NCBI RefSeq assembly: GCF_002945325.1
Contig: NZ_CP026606.1
Span: 630,001 to 662,000 of the forward strand
DNA: 32,000 nt
From: Methanococcus maripaludis
Lineage (GTDB): Archaea; AGJL01; Methanococci; Methanococcales; Methanococcaceae
Direction: 5' to 3'
Position numbers and translations under genes: made by a program. Numbering within the stretch: the stretch's first letter is position 1; every line of letters begins with the position of its first letter. Below the pieces are notes generated by a model that had not been told where the DNA came from, did no database searches, and saw only the letters and a list, made by a program, of their open reading frames with translations. Shown piece after piece: positions 13,486-22,886 of the stretch.

Positions 13486-13529
13486 TATCGCCTCTTTTTT
13501 ATTTGAAAATTTTATGAGGGAGGGTATTT

Positions 13530-13598
13530 TTGTTACCAAATAATTAACCGTTTCCAGTATTGGTAACAATAATAACTGTGGATATCCATCTATATAAA
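13530..13598. promoter_or_regulatory. Control region: a 10-bp-arm inverted repeat plus the palindrome TGGATATCCA abutting a TATA-like box
   Basis: TTGTTACCAA (13530-13539) and TTGGTAACAA (13560-13569) are exact reverse complements, 20 nt apart. TGGATATCCAT is at 13579-13589. TATATAAA is at 13591-13598. The region lies between divergent regulator genes. Confidence 0.5.
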
Positions 13599-13705
13599 TG
13601 TTTCCAAAAATAGTAACGGGCAGTATATTGATAATATTATAATTTATTCAAATGGGAACATAAAATACAACATTGAATAATTATGGAACTTAAAAAGGGG
13701 AAAAA

Positions 13706-14071
13706 ATGTTCCTGAAAATTTTATCCAAATCCAATGCAAAAGAAATTTTAATGCTTTTGAACGAATATGGCGAGTTATATTTCGGGCAAATTCATAAAGA
13801 ATTAGATAAACCAAAAAGTAATTTAAGCAGAGTTATATCTGAATTACAGGAAGAAGGTCTTGTAAACAAAAGAACCGAAGAAACAGACGAAGACGGAAGA
13901 ATACCTAAGAATTATTATAGTTTAACCAATCTCGGTAAGATTGCTATTGAAATATATCAAAAAGAAGACAAAATGTTAAAAGAAAAAGAGTCTGGAAACG
14001 TAAATATCAATGTTGAAAATAATCATGGAATTATCGCAAACAATATTCAAAATTTGAACGTAAAAAAGTAA
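13706..14071 (+). CDS. Winged-helix (ArsR/PadR-like) transcriptional regulator (121 aa)
   Basis: KEILMLLNEYGELYFGQIHKELDKPKSNLSRVISELQEEGLVNKR... followed by YYSLTNLGK, giving a helix-turn-helix plus wing pattern. Confidence 0.8.
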   Translation: MFLKILSKSNAKEILMLLNEYGELYFGQIHKELDKPKSNLSRVISELQEEGLVNKRTEETDEDGRIPKNYYSLTNLGKIAIEIYQKEDKMLKEKESGNVNINVENNHGIIANNIQNLNVKK

Positions 14072-14186
14072 TAAGGGTTACTATTAATTATAGATTTTAT
14101 TTTTGAGAGTTTAAAGGGTTATTCAATAATTATATTTAAGTTATTTATGTTTATTGATTGAGGGAAATTTTATTAAAGGTGGGGAA

Positions 14187-15512
14187 ATGGGAAAACTTCC
14201 AGATAATGAAATGTCTAAAATTATTAACAAAATTTTAGATTTAACTTATATTGATGAAAATAAGCTCAAAATTAGAAAAAATAAAAGCCTTTTTGAATTT
14301 GAAACTTATTTATCATTATTAAATTGTGAATTACTCAAAGATGAAAATATTTCTAAAAAAATAACGGATTTAAAATACTGTACGATGATTTCAAGTGATA
14401 TTAACAATTTTGAACTTATTCTTGATGTTTTAACTGAACTAAAAACTAAAAACTTGAATAATTATAATGAATTCAAAAATATTCTTGATTTAAAAATTAA
14501 ATCGTTAAAAAGTGAGTTTAAGCAGCATACCCTGTATGAAATGTACATTCCACTAAATTTAAAAACTGAATTCACCATTGAAAAAATAAAATGTAGAAAT
14601 TTTTGTGCAGAAATTGTGAAACATAGAACGATAAAAGGAATTATAAATCAGCCAAAATTAAACGAAAGTATCAAAAAAGCCCATGAAATAGACTCACAAT
14701 GTGAAATAAATGTGAATTTCGAAGAAAGTGAATTTTTAAAAATAACTGTTAATAGTCAAACAGATGCCCATGCATGCCTAACTGCACGTAAAATTCAAAA
14801 TTTATTCATTGGCATGGTTGCATATGTTATTACCAAAAATTCAAGCTACAGAACACTTAAAGGCCCAACCGAAGCCATATTCCCAATATATCCGCAAATA
14901 ATGATAGAAACAATAGGTACCCAATTTGTTACTGTATTTGTGGGAGACATAACCCGTAAAAGAATACCAAAAGACTGTATTATACCTATTGAAAAGTTTT
15001 ATGAAACAGAATTAAATTATTTAATCCAATTCTATAATTCAAAACATCCTGATATTCAAAAAAAACTAGAAGAAATATTTACAAACTATGCTTGCGGGGT
15101 TTATCAAGATAAAAAGACGGATTCATTTTTTAATTTATGGGTGGCATTGGAACGAGCAACAATGGTGTCCGATATAGGAAAACATGACATGATCCCTAAA
15201 ATTTCAAAAGCATTATTTAATGAAAGAAATCCATTATATGCCCACGTTATTGAAAATCTGTATAATGTTAGAAACAATTTTATTCATGAAGGCGGATCTA
15301 TTTCCCAATACGATAGAAATGCATTAAAATACTGTGTTGATAATCTGATTGAATTTTTAATAAATGAGTTAAATTCGTATTCCCTTAACGAAATAAGAAC
15401 AATTTATGAATATTTAACCAAAAATGGTGATAATTTAGAAAACATTCAAAAGACCATTGAACATGTCATAGAATTAAAGAATAATTGGAAAGGGGAAATT
15501 TCAGAAAAATAA
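14187..15512 (+). CDS. HEPN-domain protein (442 aa from ATG 14187), possibly ApeA-like; candidate RNase or abortive-infection effector
   Basis: C-terminal NLYNVRNNFIHEGG is a canonical R-N-x3-H (Rx4-6H) HEPN motif in a helical context. AGGTGGGG RBS precedes ATG 14187. The N-terminal roughly 330 aa are unrecognised. Confidence 0.75.
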   Translation: MGKLPDNEMSKIINKILDLTYIDENKLKIRKNKSLFEFETYLSLLNCELLKDENISKKITDLKYCTMISSDINNFELILDVLTELKTKNLNNYNEFKNILDLKIKSLKSEFKQHTLYEMYIPLNLKTEFTIEKIKCRNFCAEIVKHRTIKGIINQPKLNESIKKAHEIDSQCEINVNFEESEFLKITVNSQTDAHACLTARKIQNLFIGMVAYVITKNSSYRTLKGPTEAIFPIYPQIMIETIGTQFVTVFVGDITRKRIPKDCIIPIEKFYETELNYLIQFYNSKHPDIQKKLEEIFTNYACGVYQDKKTDSFFNLWVALERATMVSDIGKHDMIPKISKALFNERNPLYAHVIENLYNVRNNFIHEGGSISQYDRNALKYCVDNLIEFLINELNSYSLNEIRTIYEYLTKNGDNLENIQKTIEHVIELKNNWKGEISEK

Positions 15513-15550
15513 CCCCATTTTTAAATTTTAATAACCATTCCCATTAAATT

Positions 15551-15586
15551 TTAAATTACTCTTTTTAAATTGATTGAAAAAAGAAA
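15551..15586. repeat. 36-nt direct repeat, copy 1; putative bidirectional oligo-T terminator
   Basis: ttaaattactctttttaaattgattgaaaaaagaaa matches 17628-17663 at 35 of 36 positions. It sits between convergent stop codons (15512 and 15607). Confidence 0.8.
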
Positions 15587-15606
15587 AGAGAATATAATTT
15601 TAAAAA

Positions 15607-15888
15607 TTATAATCCTAACGCTGATCTAGGCAACACTCGGAGCTTATTAGTTTCACTTTTAACAGAATTTACTACATTTTTTTCAAGAATGTCTGTTAAT
15701 GTTTTAAGTTCTTTTTCTGACAACGTGCATATATCTGACTGGCTATTTTCTGAAAGATAAAACTTGACATTACACTTATTTTCATTATTTAATTTACCAA
15801 TAAGAACTTTTGAAACTTTTTCCAATTCAATATATTTAGTATCATGTTCATTTTCAATTTTAAATAATTTCATTTTTTTCACCGTCAT
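15607..15888 (-). CDS. Hypothetical protein (93 aa)
   Basis: ORF track entry. Its ATG directly follows the stop of a 33-aa upstream ORF (TAAATG). Confidence 0.5.
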   Translation of the reverse strand: MTVKKMKLFKIENEHDTKYIELEKVSKVLIGKLNNENKCNVKFYLSENSQSDICTLSEKELKTLTDILEKNVVNSVKSETNKLRVLPRSALGL

Positions 15889-15990
15889 TTACTTCTTTTT
15901 ATTATATTTCACGATAGTTTCTTTGTTTGTTCGTGTAACCGTTCCAATCTTTTTATTTTTTCTAATTATCAGAGTCGTTTTTTTCGTCAT
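15889..15990 (-). CDS. Possible 33-aa highly basic peptide
   Basis: Hand translation: MTKKTTLIIRKNKKIGTVTRTNKETIVKYNKKK. AGGAGGT lies 6 nt upstream of the ATG. Its stop abuts the next ATG. Confidence 0.3.
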   Translation of the reverse strand: MTKKTTLIIRKNKKIGTVTRTNKETIVKYNKKK

Positions 15991-16560
15991 TAAATAACCT
16001 CCTTTATTTTAAGTATAAGCTTCGCTAACTTGTTAAACAACAAAATTAGGCGTAATTAGTCCCCAATATAATGAAAACTAATGAGTAATGTATAAATACA
16101 AATTTTCAAAAAGAGATATACGGGATCGATCAAAATCCGCATATCAGAATATGTCTTTTTACAATGGCATCACCTCTGATGTAAATACCTTTTTTAGATA
16201 ATTTTATAGGTATTTGATTTTCTGATAAGATAAATATTATGTTAATAATTTATATACTTGTCTTTAGTGCCCTATATATACTAAACTAAACAAGACGATA
16301 GAGCTTTTTTCAATAACTGCTAAATTGCATATGAATAATGCTTTTTGCAGTAATCTACTTTTAACCCCAATCTAATTAAAAAAAGAGTTATTTAAATATT
16401 ATCGTAAAATGTAAAGTAGATTAAAAATTCAAAAAATAGCCTTCTTTTTTAATTTAAAGCATATTACCCTCATTAAATTCAATTAAAATAATTATTCTTC
16501 GATAAAATATTAAACTTGCCATTCTGGTTTTAACATTAAATTTACAACATAATTATAAAA

Positions 16561-16596
16561 TTATATATACGATTTTTAATAAATGGATATCCATTT
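16561..16596 (+). promoter_or_regulatory. TATA-like box (TTATATATA) plus a perfect 16-bp palindrome AAATGGATATCCATTT upstream of the nuclease-like gene
   Basis: TATA-like box at 16561-16569. Palindrome at 16581-16596, at about the expected transcription start site. GAGGGGA RBS, then ATG at 16619. Confidence 0.5.
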
Positions 16597-16618
16597 GATT
16601 TAAAAAAGAGGGGAGTAT

Positions 16619-17167
16619 ATGTTAGGAATTATCAAATCAGCAGTTTCAAAACTTATGGATGCATTTACTAAAAAATCAAGATCTGAAAAAATCGATGAAA
16701 TTAGAGAAGAAATTAAAAAAGATCCAACATCATTTGAAAAGGGAACAGCTTTTGAATTATGTTGTTTGGACATATTTTCAGAAAAGGACTTTGACTTACT
16801 TGAAATGACACATAATCCGGATTCTGCAAATGGCAGATTTGTTAAAAGTGATTTAAACCCGGATTTACAGTTTAAAAATAAAAAAACAGATAGTGTTTTT
16901 AGTGTTGAATGCAAATACAGAAGCAGTTTATATAAAGGGGCTTTTAGCTGGGCTAAAAATAAAGCTCAAGCTGACAGATACAGAGAATATGAAAAAGAAA
17001 ATGAAATTTCCGTATTTGTTGCAATGGGGTTAGGTGGAACTCCTGAAAAACCAGAACAAATTTTCTTAATGCCTTTAAAAGAAATAAAATATAATTCACT
17101 CTACCCTAGTGTTTTAAACGATTATGAAATAAAAGAAGCTAAAGATGTATTTAAAATATTAAACTAA
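16619..17167 (+). CDS. PD-(D/E)xK (restriction-endonuclease-fold) nuclease-like protein (182 aa)
   Basis: GTAFELCCLDIF helix, then NPDLQF ... SVFSVECKY, giving the D ... E-x-K arrangement typical of Mrr/restriction-endonuclease cores. Confidence 0.65.
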   Translation: MLGIIKSAVSKLMDAFTKKSRSEKIDEIREEIKKDPTSFEKGTAFELCCLDIFSEKDFDLLEMTHNPDSANGRFVKSDLNPDLQFKNKKTDSVFSVECKYRSSLYKGAFSWAKNKAQADRYREYEKENEISVFVAMGLGGTPEKPEQIFLMPLKEIKYNSLYPSVLNDYEIKEAKDVFKILN

Positions 17168-17217
17168 TCCAAATAATTAATTATTTTTTTAATTTTTACA
17201 GTTATCTGGTGGATAAA

Positions 17218-17619
17218 ATGGACGGCCCACATAAAATGCTCATTTGTATAGTTGTAATTCTCTCAGCATTCAGTCCTTTTATAGAAGATGCAATTTACAA
17301 CTATTCTCATGACGTTAATATAGAAGAAATCAGGTTTTCATACCATCCAAATAGTGAATATTTTAATGGAACAAGCGGTGAAATGGATGAAAACGGAACT
17401 TTAAGGTTAATTGTTACACCTACCGATAAATTTAGAAATTTAACGTATGATGAACAGGTTAAATGGATGAATCGGGCAGGAAATGCATTAAGAGACGATG
17501 CAATTTTAAAAAATACAATTGAAAAGGATACTCCAGTATTTGTAACATTTGAAAGCGAGTGCTATCAAGACGGAAAAGACTGTAAAATAGATTATTTTGG
17601 AAATTGGAGTTTTGAATAA
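17218..17619 (+). CDS. Small membrane-anchored/secreted protein (133 aa)
   Basis: GGTGG lies 5 nt before ATG 17218. N-terminal hydrophobic segment MLICIVVILSAFSPFI. Lies 50 nt downstream of the nuclease-like gene. Confidence 0.55.
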   Translation: MDGPHKMLICIVVILSAFSPFIEDAIYNYSHDVNIEEIRFSYHPNSEYFNGTSGEMDENGTLRLIVTPTDKFRNLTYDEQVKWMNRAGNALRDDAILKNTIEKDTPVFVTFESECYQDGKDCKIDYFGNWSFE

Positions 17620-17627
17620 ATTTTGAT

Positions 17628-17663
17628 TTAAATTACTTTTTTTAAATTGATTGAAAAAAGAAA
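17628..17663. repeat. 36-nt direct repeat, copy 2; putative bidirectional terminator
   Basis: ttaaattactttttttaaattgattgaaaaaagaaa. It sits between convergent stops (17619 and 17698). Weaker similarity continues about 25 nt further in both copies. Confidence 0.8.
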
Positions 17664-17697
17664 TATTATTCAATTCTAAAAATTAAAATTAGGTAAA

Positions 17698-18720
17698 TTA
17701 AACTCTTACCTTAGAGTGAGTTTCATATTTATTTCCCGAATGTTTAGATTCCAGATAATCATCATCCAGTATTTTAATAACTGTAGCATAGTTTTTGCTA
17801 TTAATTATTAAATTATCATTCTCATCAAATTCAATTTCATCTAATTTAAATTCCGATTTTGTATCAGATATTGAATTATGATCCCAAGTTTTGTAACTTT
17901 TAGTATTCAATACCGTAGCAAATTTTTTAGTAAGATCTTTATTACGTTTGGATAAACTTACCAGTACTTCAAGATTATCTTTATCGATAATTTTTTGCTC
18001 AACCAATTTATCTTTTTTATCATCAATTTCTTTTTTGTATCCTTCATGGAAATCAAAAAATAATTCAATACCATTTTTGTTAAATACATACATAATTTCA
18101 GAGATATCTTCAGAAGCCATCTCTTTACCCTTATAAATCATTCCATCAAATTTATCTTCAAGTGCAAAAATACTATCTTCGATTTTATCGAATTTACCAT
18201 TATTTCTATTAAATACCATGTTTAAAGTGCCTTTTCCAAGCAATTTAAGAGGAGAATGTTTTTTAATAAATATCAAATTTTTAGATATTTCTTTTTTGTT
18301 ATCAAAGATATCAATGGTTACAATATATCCCCAAATTTTTTTTATGTTTTTTAATGCATTGCTATTTAAAAACTCGGGATCCCCGTAAGTTTTATCATAA
18401 ATATCTTCAAAATGGGGAATATCTTCTGCAGACATGACTTCAATAACTTTTTTATCATATTTCGCCATTGGAGAATATTTTGGGTAAAAATATTCATCAC
18501 CACATCGAATTCCCACTTCAAGTTGGGCAATTTTCAATAATTCCTGCTCTATTGCGTGATTTGAATTAAATTCTGTTCTCCAAATTTTATGTGTTATCAA
18601 TTCTTTCTTTTTAGTTCGTTCTACAAAATTCAAAGTTATATTACCCAAATTAAGATTTTCGTCTTTTAACATCTTGTATATATCAGGCATTTTTAATATA
18701 GTAGCGACATTTATTTCCAT
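17698..18720 (-). CDS. Cytoplasmic 340-aa protein, second gene of a two-gene operon (KwaB/DUF4868-like by architecture only)
   Basis: ORF track entry. Starts 3 nt after the stop of the 4-TM gene. Lys/Glu/Asp-rich. No catalytic motif recognised. Confidence 0.7.
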   Translation of the reverse strand: MEINVATILKMPDIYKMLKDENLNLGNITLNFVERTKKKELITHKIWRTEFNSNHAIEQELLKIAQLEVGIRCGDEYFYPKYSPMAKYDKKVIEVMSAEDIPHFEDIYDKTYGDPEFLNSNALKNIKKIWGYIVTIDIFDNKKEISKNLIFIKKHSPLKLLGKGTLNMVFNRNNGKFDKIEDSIFALEDKFDGMIYKGKEMASEDISEIMYVFNKNGIELFFDFHEGYKKEIDDKKDKLVEQKIIDKDNLEVLVSLSKRNKDLTKKFATVLNTKSYKTWDHNSISDTKSEFKLDEIEFDENDNLIINSKNYATVIKILDDDYLESKHSGNKYETHSKVRV

Positions 18721-18723
18721 AAT

Positions 18724-19401
18724 CTACACTTCTTTAAAGATATTATTTCCATACATATGTTTTAATTGTAATTTATCATCGATTTTCAGATCTTTTTTAG
18801 TGATTATCAAAGCATCTGAATAAGTTTTAGGATTTGGTGACATATTGGCTCCTTTTTTAATGGATGCACGATACATTTTGTATCCAAAAGACGTTAAAAC
18901 AGGATTTATAAACACTAAATCAGTAGAAATTGCTACCGAACGCATAATTCCTAAAAATAATATAAAAGCTAAAATATTTGTGAATTTACATAAATCAAAT
19001 CCCATAAATGCAATCATATATGGCACAAAATAATCCAGCGCATCTTTTGTACGATTTTCAAAATCTACCACCACATATTCTTTTGCAGAAGTAGTTCTTG
19101 TACAATACCAAAATAAAGCCCAAAATATCAATGTAGGAGTAAAAAATACAATAATAAAAACTATTCCAATAGTTAAAGGAATTGAAACATTTCCCATACC
19201 CACAGTTTGTGGAATTGTGGAAGTACAGTTTATAAACGGCATTTCTATACAAGAGCACGTTTCTGTAAAATAAATTGCGGAAAATATCAGAAATAATGGC
19301 AAATAAGAAAACATGAATAAACCGGTATTTATGGTCCAGCCTATACTCCAGCCTATAAGTTTATCCCAACGATTTTTTTGATTTTTCCCCTCAGTCCCCA
19401 T
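18724..19401 (-). CDS. Four-TM membrane protein (225 aa), first gene of the two-gene operon (KwaA-like by architecture only)
   Basis: Hydrophobic helices LFMFSYLPLFLIFSAIYF, IPLTIGIVFIIVFFTPTLIFWALFWY, YFVPYMIAFMGF and ILAFILFLGIMRSVAI, then a soluble roughly 50-aa tail. A TATA-like catatatat lies about 45 nt upstream. Confidence 0.7.
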   Translation of the reverse strand: MGTEGKNQKNRWDKLIGWSIGWTINTGLFMFSYLPLFLIFSAIYFTETCSCIEMPFINCTSTIPQTVGMGNVSIPLTIGIVFIIVFFTPTLIFWALFWYCTRTTSAKEYVVVDFENRTKDALDYFVPYMIAFMGFDLCKFTNILAFILFLGIMRSVAISTDLVFINPVLTSFGYKMYRASIKKGANMSPNPKTYSDALIITKKDLKIDDKLQLKHMYGNNIFKEV

Positions 19402-19521
19402 GAAAACACCTAAATTGTACCGAAGAGGTCTTTATCTCTTCATATATATGATAGTTTTCATGACGTAATATTTTAAGAATTAGTTGTACGATTGTAAAAA
19501 TAATTTTAAGATAGCATTAAT

Positions 19522-20451
19522 TTATCGAGGACCGATAAATCTATCCCCATTATAGTGTATCATGTGATCAGGATTTTCTGAAATCCAAACTTCAGTATCC
19601 CATGCAATATCTGCAACATATTTTTTGAAAGTAGCTTTATCCCTAAAGCAGCTCACATATATTTTTCCACACTTACAGTCTTCAAGCATTTCTTCAAGTT
19701 CATAGTACCGTTTATCTGAAACTGGGCCATGAGAAGTAACTGCTTCAATTAAATAAATCCAGTTATTCTTTTCATCATACAAAACAACATCTGGAAGCTT
19801 ATCATGTTTAGTCATTGGAATTCCAAGCTTTTCAAGTTCTTCATCCAATTTATAAAGGTTTTTATGTGCGGTATCCCCAACATAAAGAACTTTTGAACCA
19901 CCTGCAAATCTAGGTCCAAATTCTTCAATAATTTCTTTTTGTAATTCATTATGTTCTCCAGAAGAAAATTCAAGTTCCGTATCATCAACTTTAACTGAAA
20001 TTTTATGAATTTCCCTAATTCCCTGATATTTTTCAGAAAGTGAAGTTTTATTCTCTAAAAACCATTCAACAGACTTTTCAAAATCATCAGTTTCGTATGT
20101 TTTTAAAACTTCTAAAAATTCAGGAGTTAAGGAATAAACTGTTTTACCACTGTTTGTAGGTCTTTTTGGATCATCTCGATTCCTTTCAACAATTCCAGCA
20201 TGTTCAAACTGGTGTATTGTCTGCCGCCTTATTGTTTCCCTGCTATTTTCAGCATAAGTATATCCATAATTTTCAGAAATAAACAATAAAATATCATGAA
20301 TTCTAACTAAATTATCTTCTGAATCTTTCCAATCACTGTTTTCTTGGATATTTGCAAGTGCTAAAAGAGTATATGCACTTCTATTATTTTGCTGCTTCAC
20401 TGGAAGCTCAAATTTCTTTAAAATAGTTAAAGCTTCGTCTAACTTTCCCAT
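19522..20451 (-). CDS. Type II restriction endonuclease, BsuBI/PstI-like (309 aa from ATG 20451; alternative TTG at 20466)
   Basis: Lies immediately downstream of the methyltransferase. PD...E core LPDVVLYDEKNNWIYLIEAVTSHGPV. N-terminal wHTH-like region. The size matches R.PstI-class enzymes. Confidence 0.6.
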   Translation of the reverse strand: MGKLDEALTILKKFELPVKQQNNRSAYTLLALANIQENSDWKDSEDNLVRIHDILLFISENYGYTYAENSRETIRRQTIHQFEHAGIVERNRDDPKRPTNSGKTVYSLTPEFLEVLKTYETDDFEKSVEWFLENKTSLSEKYQGIREIHKISVKVDDTELEFSSGEHNELQKEIIEEFGPRFAGGSKVLYVGDTAHKNLYKLDEELEKLGIPMTKHDKLPDVVLYDEKNNWIYLIEAVTSHGPVSDKRYYELEEMLEDCKCGKIYVSCFRDKATFKKYVADIAWDTEVWISENPDHMIHYNGDRFIGPR

Positions 20452-20468
20452 ACTACCCTTCCACAAAA

Positions 20469-21977
20469 TTAGATATTAAATATATTATTGACAATATCAT
20501 TACATTTATCAACACTTAAATCATTTTCTTTTAGAATTAAGTCTCCAATTCTGACAATGAGTTCTTTTTCGGGAAGAGGCATTGAATTTACTTCTGTAGC
20601 ATTTACCTGAGTAGATCCATTTACAATTCTATAATATTTATCTAAGATATCACAATTAAAGAGAGCATAGAGACCAAATAATTCGTTTAATTCCATATTA
20701 CCTGATTCTTTCACAATATAATTAAGATGATTTTCAAATCCAATCTGTGGATAATTAAATTCTTTTGAAGAATAAATTGCAGCTTGAAGCCTTCTTTTCT
20801 CTTCTTTTGAAGTAAACCGTTTCAATAATAAATAATCCTTATTTTTCAAAAGTAACTTTTTAGATTCAGAATTATTCAAAATATACGGGGGTTTTCCGTC
20901 CTTTGTAACTGGAAATCTTATTAATCCGTCATTAAAATTATGTAACCACAAAAGAGGAACAGTTTCATTCGAGGGTTCATTTTTTAAATATTCTAATGAT
21001 CGAAAATCGACTACAGGCCCGGTTTTTAACTTATATCCTAGTTTAACTAAATTATACTTCCAGTTTGACATTAAATTCATGATTTTTACGTCTTCTTCGT
21101 TTGTAGGTAACAATATGAATTTATTTTCATTTTTCGTTATTACTGTATCATAAGGCATGTAAATTTGAAAAATATTTTTGGATAAATCAGAATCTGTACT
21201 TTCTGAAATACACATCATATCTTCATTTAATCTTGATTTTACAGCTTTTAAAATAATTGTTTCCTGCAATACCTGATCGTTTCCAAACACGTTTTTCCTT
21301 GAAACAAACAAATGTATTCGAGAAATATTTACATTTTCAAGGAACCATGTTCTAAATTTTTTAAAATAAAGACCCGATGTAAAGCTTCTTGGATTAATAA
21401 ATATGAACTCTCCATTTTCCTTTAACAATTTTAAAGCCATTGCCATGAATAAAAAATAAATATTGGGCTGACCGTGCACAATAGAATTCATAGCTACAGC
21501 TTCTTCGCAAGACTTGCTTATTTTTTTGTAAGGTGGATTAGAGATTACAAGATCGTAACGCCCAACAGAGTCTGAATTCCAGTTATCTACATTCAATGTT
21601 ACAAAATTGCCATGTATAATTTTATATGTGAATTTTATGGGCGAATTTTCTAATTTATGTTTAATATATTCCATTGATTTAGTTAAAATGGGTAAAACAT
21701 CAGAATCTACTTCATAAAGATCAATATGGAGTCTTTTTAAATTTTTATGGGTTTTAAATTTATCAACAAGTGCTGTCGCTAAAATACCGGTGCCTGAACC
21801 ACAATCTAAAATATTTAATTCTTCAAAATTTTCATAGTCGCCGGATAAACTAGCCATAAAGTCGGCAACAGCTGCAGGTGTAAAAAATTGGCCTATTTTC
21901 TTCCTATCTTTCTTAGACTTCTTTTCCAAATATTTATTCGTGTATTCTTGGACTTCATTTACAAGTGATTCCTGCAT
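20469..21977 (-). CDS. N6-adenine DNA methyltransferase, gamma class (M.PstI/Eco57I-like, 502 aa)
   Basis: SAM motif ILDCGSGTGIL precedes the catalytic motif DLVISNPPYKK. FFTP near the N-terminus. Confidence 0.9.
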   Translation of the reverse strand: MQESLVNEVQEYTNKYLEKKSKKDRKKIGQFFTPAAVADFMASLSGDYENFEELNILDCGSGTGILATALVDKFKTHKNLKRLHIDLYEVDSDVLPILTKSMEYIKHKLENSPIKFTYKIIHGNFVTLNVDNWNSDSVGRYDLVISNPPYKKISKSCEEAVAMNSIVHGQPNIYFLFMAMALKLLKENGEFIFINPRSFTSGLYFKKFRTWFLENVNISRIHLFVSRKNVFGNDQVLQETIILKAVKSRLNEDMMCISESTDSDLSKNIFQIYMPYDTVITKNENKFILLPTNEEDVKIMNLMSNWKYNLVKLGYKLKTGPVVDFRSLEYLKNEPSNETVPLLWLHNFNDGLIRFPVTKDGKPPYILNNSESKKLLLKNKDYLLLKRFTSKEEKRRLQAAIYSSKEFNYPQIGFENHLNYIVKESGNMELNELFGLYALFNCDILDKYYRIVNGSTQVNATEVNSMPLPEKELIVRIGDLILKENDLSVDKCNDIVNNIFNI

Positions 21978-21998
21978 AATTAGACCCCATTTTAAAAA

Positions 21999-22886
21999 TC
22001 ATTTCTTATTATTCATAACTCGTAAATACTCTTTTTTCCTTGATTCCTTGTTCGAGTGAACGTATCCCGAAGTAGTATTCAAGTTTGAATGACCCATTAT
22101 TTTTGAAAGAACAATCAAGTTCATTTCATCTTCACAGGCTAAAGTTCCAAAGGTATGCCTGAAAACGTGTGGAGTAACATCAAAAGGAATTTTATCTTTT
22201 GTAACTTCCTTTAAATAGTCTCTAAATTTATCTATTGCGTAATTTGTAACCTTTTTACCATTCTTAGTTACAAAAAAGCAGTCTGTTTTTAAATTTAAAT
22301 TCTCTCTGTATTCGATATAATTTTTAAGATATCCTAAAAGTTCGTTATCGATAAATACATATCTATCTTTTCCGCCTTTTCCATCCCGAATGTAAATTGA
22401 GCGGTCTTCTAAATCTACATCATTTAAAAGTATGTTTTGAAATTCAGAAATCCTAACACCCGTTTTTAAAAGAAATAGTGTGTAAACATAATAATCATAG
22501 TCCATTACTTTTGCTAAAACTGTTTGAACTTGTTTTTCACTTAAATTCAATCTCTCCTTTTTTTCAAATTTGAGAGTTTTTACAAAGGTTTTCACTGGAT
22601 TTTTAAATAAATACTGATGTTCTACCGCCCATTCATAAAATCGATTAACATCATTTAATCTTTTGATTTTAGTATTCTTATTTACAGGCCTTCCATCTTC
22701 GGCTTTGTTATATCCATTATAGAAGTTTATTGCATCTTCTATTGTGATATTTTCCCAGGTTTTATTTTCGTCAAAATATCTTGTAAATGCCTTTAAACCG
22801 GATTTATAGTATTTTACAGTATTTTGACTGTGACCTGAATGAAATTTTAAGAATTTTTCAACAAGTTTTTCTGAAGATTCATCCAT
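21999..22886 (-). CDS. Tyrosine recombinase/integrase (XerC/D-phage integrase family, 295 aa)
   Basis: Catalytic residues in order: GVRISE (R), GKGGKDR (K), HVFRHT (HxxR), GHSNL (H), SGYVH (Y). Confidence 0.9.
   Translation of the reverse strand: MDESSEKLVEKFLKFHSGHSQNTVKYYKSGLKAFTRYFDENKTWENITIEDAINFYNGYNKAEDGRPVNKNTKIKRLNDVNRFYEWAVEHQYLFKNPVKTFVKTLKFEKKERLNLSEKQVQTVLAKVMDYDYYVYTLFLLKTGVRISEFQNILLNDVDLEDRSIYIRDGKGGKDRYVFIDNELLGYLKNYIEYRENLNLKTDCFFVTKNGKKVTNYAIDKFRDYLKEVTKDKIPFDVTPHVFRHTFGTLACEDEMNLIVLSKIMGHSNLNTTSGYVHSNKESRKKEYLRVMNNKK

Follow-up and report, generated by a model that had tools for sequence, protein, structure and literature searches.

The 32,000-nucleotide window analysed here (contig NZ_CP026606.1 of Methanococcus maripaludis, positions 630,001 to 662,000) carries, at 14187-15512 on its plus strand, a gene for a 441-residue protein. 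We consider it probable (about 0.65) that this gene encodes a single-protein antiviral effector, a compact and very distant relative of ApeA, whose C-terminal HEPN domain is a predicted metal-independent endoribonuclease. The family to which the protein belongs keeps the HEPN catalytic set, made of a glutamate in an upstream helix and an Arg-Asn-x3-His motif at a helix end. Its only significant relatives of solved structure are ApeA proteins. Within a provirus, whose host is related to Methanothermococcus, the gene forms a separate cassette, exchanged recently, in the defence island near the integrase. Judged from its sequence, the protein appears to be no new kind of system but a compact and distant variant of HEPN defence nucleases of the ApeA type, missed by current defence catalogues.

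Relationship of the protein to ApeA

The open reading frame ends at 15512 and offers two candidate starts, TTG at 14154 or ATG at 14187. We retained the ATG because aaaGGTGGGGaa lies directly upstream of it and the homologues begin at the equivalent position. The product then has 441 residues followed by a stop, and not the 442 residues announced in the preliminary description of this DNA. The peptide quoted in that description, ENLYNVRNNFIHEGGSISQYDRNALKY, corresponds exactly to positions 15252-15332 and includes the sequence RNNFIH (15270-15287).

Relatives of the protein were collected by an exhaustive phmmer search of 1.84 billion representative sequences, which returned 69 proteins with E ≤ 1e-3, of which 24 have E ≤ 1e-10. 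The majority measure 410-445 residues and align over their full length with 20-30% identity. A family alignment of 27 members and, for local hmmsearch, a model of 49 members were built. A word-index protein search found a sole relative, 96% identical, and returned only two members when the family alignment was used as query. The 441-residue protein itself had no match in Pfam, PADLOC, PHROGs or NCBIfam, and a single-sequence search of the PDB was also empty. With the protein as query, GTDB genomes, IMG/VR and JGI metagenomes yielded no relatives, and tblastn against GenBank phages was empty as well.

An RNxxxH motif by itself is weak evidence, since it arises in about 2% of shuffles of the protein. 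Its weight comes from its conservation: at an overall identity of 15-30%, none of the 27 aligned members departs from R362 and H367 or from W318 and E322, and 25 of them keep N363. The segment R362-N363-N-F-I-H367 conforms to the Rx4-6H motif of the HEPN superfamily, with a polar residue following the arginine. Further conserved elements of the family are 'ARNxxYA' in the middle of the protein and 'DRNxxK' (D376-R377-N378-x2-K381) at the start of the next helix after the motif. A second R-N-x4-H match (RNPLYAH, R347-H353, nucleotides 15225-15245) stands 15 residues before RNNFIH; the family does not conserve it, and it is probably due to chance.

The relationship to ApeA, a single-gene HEPN anti-phage system of bacteria, was assessed by profile comparisons. 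ApeA is represented by Ec1ApeA to Ec4ApeA (PDB 9HXB-9HXM; bioRxiv 10.64898/2026.01.26.701840 and 10.64898/2026.03.20.713152); ApeA sequences were taken from the supplement of the former preprint and from a P2-like prophage of E. coli. Against the complete set of PDB sequences, the full family profile matched Ec2ApeA (E = 3e-4) and Ec4ApeA (6e-4), and nothing else significantly. A profile restricted to the HEPN domain gave lower E-values (Ec4ApeA 3.3e-5, Ec2ApeA 9.4e-5, Ec3ApeA 5e-4), its six top matches all being ApeA entries. Ec2ApeA entries annotated as variants scored worse with this profile, down to 0.006 as against 9e-5 for the best one. The ApeA E-values were reproduced in local hmmsearch with the 49-member model.

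Alignment with hhalign paired residues 185-393 of the protein with residues 251-535 of Ec2ApeA (probability 97.0%, E = 9.6e-11), the match starting inside the Mid domain of ApeA, at Ec2ApeA residue 251. The two HEPN domains alone aligned with a probability of 95.9% (E = 6e-9). The two Mid domains gave a weak collinear signal over 35 columns (probability 32%, P = 4.9e-4, controls at P 0.17-0.68); reversed and cross-domain controls did not exceed a probability of 0.4%. The alignment pairs the WxxxE helix of the family with the sequence LLNLWIAIES of Ec2ApeA, and R362/H367 with R502/H507. R502 is catalytic in Ec2ApeA, and the R502A substitution abolishes defence (10.64898/2026.01.26.701840). Profile similarity is significant over the HEPN domain, with the catalytic residues aligned; no counterpart of the ApeA N-terminal domain (Ec2ApeA residues 1-198), which contributes half of the ligand pocket, was found by sequence.

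An AlphaFold2 model calculated from the 27-sequence alignment (predicted local distance difference test score, pLDDT, 87; predicted template modelling score 0.82) divides the protein into three parts, which are listed here with the catalytic-type residues.

14187-14522, plus strand: N-terminal, mainly helical domain, residues 1-112 (predicted helices 6-19, 35-51, 53-62, 75-87 and 93-110)
14523-14990, plus strand: middle alpha/beta domain, residues 113-268 (predicted strands 115-145, 182-190 and 238-252; helix 193-216)
14991-15509, plus strand: C-terminal all-helical HEPN-type domain, residues 269-441 (from hhalign, PDB profile search and a separate model of this domain, pLDDT 88)
15138-15152, plus strand: invariant W318 and E322 (27 of 27 members) in the helix of residues 310-324, with the HEPN upstream acidic residue
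15270-15287, plus strand: catalytic-type motif R362-N363-N-F-I-H367 (RNNFIH), residues 362-367 from the translation

HEPN domains are defined by a motif where helix 3 ends and an acidic residue in helix 2 (PMC3710099), and this placement is seen in the AlphaFold2 models. RNNFIH closes helix 349-368 on its C-terminal side, a loop and helix 374-394 come next, and the invariant E322 lies in helix 310-324, two helices before the motif. The preliminary description had proposed an HEPN ribonuclease of the ApeA type, and this proposal is supported by the restriction of significant PDB matches to ApeA, the hhalign probability of 97%, the pairing of R362 with R502 and the arrangement of motif and glutamate. 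It had also left about 330 N-terminal residues unrecognised and regarded them as a novel sensor domain. This holds for residues 1-184, for which no relative was detected, but from about residue 185 on the protein aligns to ApeA, and the middle domain carries the weak Mid signal. The aligned element of that domain is a strand followed by a long helix (residues 185-219), in which the family-conserved R191 and N192 are replaced by Gln and Thr in the window protein. Residues 1-112 constitute a candidate sensor domain, with no relative detected outside the family; 'novel sensor' is apt only for about the first 110-185 residues.

Several results weigh against an assignment to ApeA. Foldseek found no significant match to the full model in PDB or BFVD (best E 0.15), and the C-terminal domain had none in PDB at E ≤ 0.001 (best E 0.67); since the library ends in April 2026 and ApeA entries may be absent from it, a match to the four-helix up-down bundle of solved HEPN domains is neither confirmed nor negated by these searches. 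Among the listed matches of the C-terminal domain, the highest TM-score, 0.42, was obtained with the HEPN protein Csm6' (8pe3, E 1.1), the others being mostly bRIL fusion constructs and other helical-bundle proteins. The authors of the ApeA structures themselves needed GTalign to link the ApeA HEPN domain with HepT (10.64898/2026.01.26.701840). Residues 1-184 show no similarity to ApeA residues 1-250 (hhalign probability 0.2%), and an ApeA insertion of about 85 residues (Ec2ApeA ~397-480) has no counterpart in the hhalign alignment. The insertion and pocket residues of Ec2ApeA are Y401, Y469, H487, R490, Q494 and Y525; of these, the alignable H487, R490, Q494 and Y525 are not conserved and correspond to R347, L350, V354 and a non-conserved hydrophobic residue. 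The PADLOC ApeA model PDLC02157 misses the window protein and the homologues P0002, P0003, P0005 and P0045, while recovering the Ec2ApeA control at 1.3e-12. Finally, the window protein and its close relative P0001 have changed polar residues that the rest of the family conserves, such as R191Q and N192T.

The complete set of these replacements is R63K, R191Q, N192T, E307Q, K327V and R339I. Both proteins keep the catalytic set despite them, and their sensing or regulation may differ from that of the rest of the family. Because the insertion is missing and the alignable pocket residues are not conserved, the sensing mechanism of ApeA is not simply transferable to the window protein.

The window protein and 26 homologues had no match at E ≤ 1 to the Pfam Apea-like HEPN and ApeA_NTD1 families; this miss is uninformative, as the characterised Ec2ApeA was likewise unmatched by them and matches no Pfam family at E ≤ 0.01. 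A search with an Ec2ApeA fragment was likewise empty, as was tblastn of such a fragment against PLSDB plasmids. No Pfam HEPN model reached its threshold in any member, the best values being 0.003 for DUF4145 and 0.025 for Swt1/RiboL-PSP. Sub-threshold matches to Pfam MauJ occurred in 6 of the 27 members, including P0009 and P0010 (best 5e-4), around residues 284-325 in the region of HEPN helices 1-2, and MauJ may belong to the same superfamily.

The gene as a cassette in a provirus

The effector gene is preceded on the same strand by a winged-helix gene. This order was met again solely in L001, a contig of 8.8 kb from a related provirus, with which the region was compared.

13525-13574, no strand assigned: inverted repeat TTGTTACCAA-N20-TTGGTAACAA in the divergent intergenic region between the DUF2080 and winged-helix genes (15-nt arms, 93% complementary)
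13706-14071, plus strand: gene of a winged-helix (ArsR/MarR/TrmB-like) DNA-binding protein of 121 residues (open reading frame list and Pfam)
14072-14186, plus strand: spacer of 115 nt between the winged-helix and HEPN genes
14140-15570, plus strand: cassette of about 1.43 kb, about 98% identical to L001, with sharp identity drops on both sides (sliding window)
14187-15512, plus strand: ApeA-like HEPN protein gene, 441 residues and stop

The preliminary description was correct on the 115-nt gap and on the nature of the upstream gene, which encodes a true winged helix. Its product matches Pfam HTH_5 (7e-9) and MarR_2 (1e-6), with MarR and TFIIE_alpha also above the gathering thresholds and TrmB and PadR just under them. 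Partial NCBIfam matches are of archaeal type, e.g. MsvR, Sta1 and Lrs14. An Asn-rich C-terminal tail, starting at about residue 92, is not conserved.

The two genes diverge from their L001 counterparts to very different extents. Synonymous divergence (dS) is 0.59 for the winged-helix gene, with a ratio of nonsynonymous to synonymous divergence (dN/dS) of 0.07 over codons 1-90. For the HEPN gene dS is 0.06 with 16 amino-acid changes and dN/dS is 0.24; it is a real gene under purifying selection. Nucleotide identity is about 50% over 13990-14120 and exceeds 95% from about 14140; the tail of the winged-helix gene and most of the spacer are only about 50% identical. This mosaic divergence suggests a recent exchange of the cassette between proviruses. 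An oligo-T run, TTTTATTTTT (14094-14103), near the start of the spacer is a possible archaeal terminator. Conservation of the downstream gene extends to the HEPN-proximal ~45 nt of the spacer, which include the Shine-Dalgarno sequence GGTGGGG, and the effector cassette probably has its own promoter.

On its other side, the winged-helix gene has an intergenic region in common with the divergent DUF2080 gene, and conservation of this region in L001 is high. Both arms of the inverted repeat TTGTTACCAA/TTGGTAACAA are identical there while the flanking coding DNA diverges; this repeat is a candidate operator. The winged-helix protein is probably the provirus's own regulator, transcribed divergently from the minus-strand operon and acting on the divergent promoters. 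In the simplest reading, the effector is an exchangeable cargo gene inserted downstream of the winged-helix gene. The latter is most likely not an obligate partner and would at most share transcription with the effector.

Both genes belong to an integrated virus-like element extending from about 2000 to 23400, which includes a tail-tube-like protein, the DUF2080 protein and a tyrosine integrase. The right end of the window is methanogen chromosome, as indicated by an Mtd gene (NCBIfam 3e-146) whose product is 86% identical to that of Methanothermococcus. Defence genes lie between the effector and the integrase.

17698-18720, minus strand: KwaB of Kiwa (Pfam KwaB, 1e-18)
18724-19401, minus strand: KwaA of Kiwa (PADLOC, 5e-26)
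within 19522-22886, minus strand: BsuBI/PstI-type restriction endonuclease (5e-61) and Eco57I/N6 methylase, beside the integrase
21999-22886, minus strand: tyrosine integrase (1e-31)

A complete Kiwa system (17698-19401, minus strand) is thus located 2 kb downstream of the HEPN gene. The stretch 13500-19500 has a low GC content (24-29%). Together with the restriction-modification genes up to the integrase it forms a defence island, made of the ApeA-like gene, a PD-(D/E)xK-like open reading frame, Kiwa and the restriction-modification pair. The whole stretch from 13.5 to 23 kb resembles the cargo end of an archaeal virus that has integrated.

Homologues also occupy defence positions. Three of them (P0003, P0005 and P0024), independently of one another, have hsdS on one side and hsdR on the other within type I restriction-modification operons, at the following positions of three loci.

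L004, 1581-2852: homologue in the hsdS-hsdR slot
L010, 1560-2834: homologue in the hsdS-hsdR slot
L026, 6001-7275: homologue in the hsdS-hsdR slot

This slot is the one held by prrC in the E. coli prr locus. Another homologue, P0045, adjoins an OLD-type ATPase-TOPRIM gene on a methanogen-like chromosome, and one further homologue has a methyltransferase and unknown genes as neighbours. No winged-helix gene was found beside any of these five homologues with readable flanks (three hsdS-hsdR, one OLD-type, one methyltransferase). The type I operon of L026 also carries an SLFN/AlbA_2-HATPase gene. In some bacteria, ApeA itself is embedded in restriction-modification operons (PMC3710099). Ec2ApeA is cargo of a P2-like prophage of E. 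coli JNQH497 (L006, 3001-4752), where it stands at a hotspot between the baseplate V and virion-morphogenesis genes. The Ec3ApeA copy of strain EC416 (L007) is split by a frameshift.

Alternative readings and a proposed mechanism

The winged-helix protein, as a transcriptional regulator or as an HTH antitoxin, might repress or neutralise the HEPN protein until infection lifts this control. The two genes would then form a functional module, as their shared strand and order, also found in L001, and the resemblance of the winged-helix domain to the CRISPR-associated regulators Csa3 and CasR would suggest. However, the other homologues with readable context have no such neighbour, and the synonymous divergences of the two genes are about tenfold apart (dS 0.59 versus 0.06), with identity to L001 falling to about 50% in the gap between them. 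The 115-nt oligo-T spacer, moreover, is not the overlap or short gap usual in toxin-antitoxin pairs, and no convincing operator-like repeat is common to the upstream regions of both genes. We consider such a module unlikely. The absence of the partner elsewhere, the mismatch in dS and the oligo-T run likewise leave the preliminary description of the effector as 'regulator-controlled' unsupported. A type II toxin-antitoxin pair with the winged-helix protein was rejected on account of the divergence mismatch and of the missing partner beside other family members.

A ribonuclease serving the provirus itself, for instance to take over the host, to process viral transcripts or to switch between lysis and lysogeny, would be consistent with the position of the gene next to a putative viral regulator, at a viral operon boundary. 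Against this use stand the non-viral homologues, which occur in type I restriction-modification operons and next to an OLD nuclease, the behaviour of the gene as an exchangeable cassette among defence genes, and the fact that the sole solved relatives are defence proteins; we find it decidedly improbable. The likeness to HEPN and ApeA could also be convergent or non-catalytic, the C-terminal helical bundle serving for binding or scaffolding and the motif having no catalytic role. The absence of a significant HEPN match in fold searches and the failure of every member to reach a Pfam HEPN threshold (best DUF4145 0.003, Swt1/RiboL-PSP 0.025) agree with this view, but it is very hard to reconcile with the invariance of Arg, His and the upstream Glu (Asn in 25 of 27) across members only 15-30% identical, with an hhalign probability of 96-97% and clean controls, and with the lower scores of the Ec2ApeA variant entries against the HEPN profile (0.006 versus 9e-5). 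We therefore regard convergence as highly improbable. Among other HEPN systems, DARNA/PD-T7-3 was rejected since its HEPN domain is N-terminal, and PrrC because the window protein has no ATPase domain and its gene is not located between hsdS and hsdR.

If the protein is an ApeA-like antiviral effector, its action can be sketched by analogy. As in ApeA and PrrC, the HEPN domains of two copies would come together and build a composite active site. Until a signal derived from the infection is sensed, the enzyme would be held in a latent state by its N-terminal and middle domains. Once activated, the enzyme would cut RNA, most likely tRNA anticodon loops as in ApeA and PrrC. This cleavage would stop the superinfecting virus and protect the lysogen population. 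The RNA target and the outcome may be others in the window protein, as Ec1ApeA is able to cut the genomic RNA of a phage and leave the cell alive. Sensing would probably differ from that by the dinucleotide pocket of ApeA, because half of the pocket framework is missing or unconserved in the window protein.

Like ApeA, the window protein is a large single protein with a C-terminal HEPN domain and non-catalytic domains ahead of it. The WxxxE and R-N-x3-H helices of the two proteins align, R362 corresponding to R502 of Ec2ApeA, and a weak collinear match concerns the strand-plus-helix element of the Mid domain. Both occur as prophage or provirus cargo (Ec2ApeA and the window gene), and the embedding in restriction-modification operons described for ApeA (PMC3710099) is found here in homologues. 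In contrast, the window protein has 441 residues versus 583-619 for ApeA. Its N-terminal domain is about half the size of that of ApeA and has no detectable similarity to it; the ~85-residue insertion (Ec2ApeA ~397-480) is absent and the alignable pocket residues are not conserved. The family has its own D376-R377-N378-x2-K381 motif and escapes the PADLOC ApeA model, and the host of the window gene is an archaeon. ApeA is reported to assemble into a doughnut-shaped decamer or dodecamer, to be activated by a ligand and to cleave tRNA anticodon loops (10.64898/2026.01.26.701840).

The family shares with PrrC and RloC a C-terminal HEPN Rx4-6H nuclease and, in three homologues, the hsdS-hsdR slot. 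Unlike PrrC and RloC, it has no ABC-ATPase/P-loop N-terminal domain, nor any Pfam match, and the window copy stands outside a type I restriction-modification operon. The hsdS-hsdR homologues suggest a PrrC-like link to restriction-modification systems.

In phage lambda, the cI-rexAB operon of the repressor carries an exclusion gene. The gene order in the window is analogous, a putative regulator gene coming before an exclusion-type gene on the same strand, both divergent from the main viral operon, and co-transcription of the two in the manner of cI-rexAB is possible. The proteins are unrelated, however; a possible terminator lies in the window spacer, and a promoter of its own is probable for the cassette.

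PADLOC, Pfam, NCBIfam and PHROGs miss this family, although it keeps the ApeA catalytic core and occupies classic defence positions. With it, the ApeA superfamily would gain a shorter architecture whose N-terminal domain is different, which lends itself to comparing how sensing is coupled to HEPN activation in nucleases of the ApeA type. It would also add a candidate abortive-infection or exclusion gene for methanogen proviruses, whose defence biology is little explored. We tentatively put forward a more far-reaching proposal, which we hold to be somewhat less than an even bet: the family would be a separate compact ApeA branch, with a sensor of its own answering to a signal other than the deoxydinucleotide or RNA ligands of ApeA. 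Bacterial members would be held latent in type I restriction-modification complexes, like PrrC, and Methanococcales members would form a provirus-borne, mobile superinfection-exclusion cassette. If so, this would rank among the first HEPN nucleases of abortive infection that have been proposed to be virus-borne in methanogenic archaea.

Further features of the window

Searches of the phage and IMG/VR collections with backbone proteins of the provirus gave no relatives. Neither the Rfam nor the tRNA scan had a match, and a scan for sigma-70 promoters and terminators has no meaning for archaeal DNA. Downstream of the effector gene, an AT-rich segment of about 1 kb (15572-16557) is not present in L001; it contains a 93-residue orphan open reading frame (15607-15888, minus strand), and about 600 bp of it have no open reading frame, Rfam match or repeats. 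It is followed by a 182-residue open reading frame (16619-17167, plus strand) with a PD...ECK signature like that of PD-(D/E)xK nucleases and a weak DUF234 match (E 0.028), which may be another defence gene. The next open reading frame, of 136 residues (17209-17619), has a hydrophobic N-terminus.

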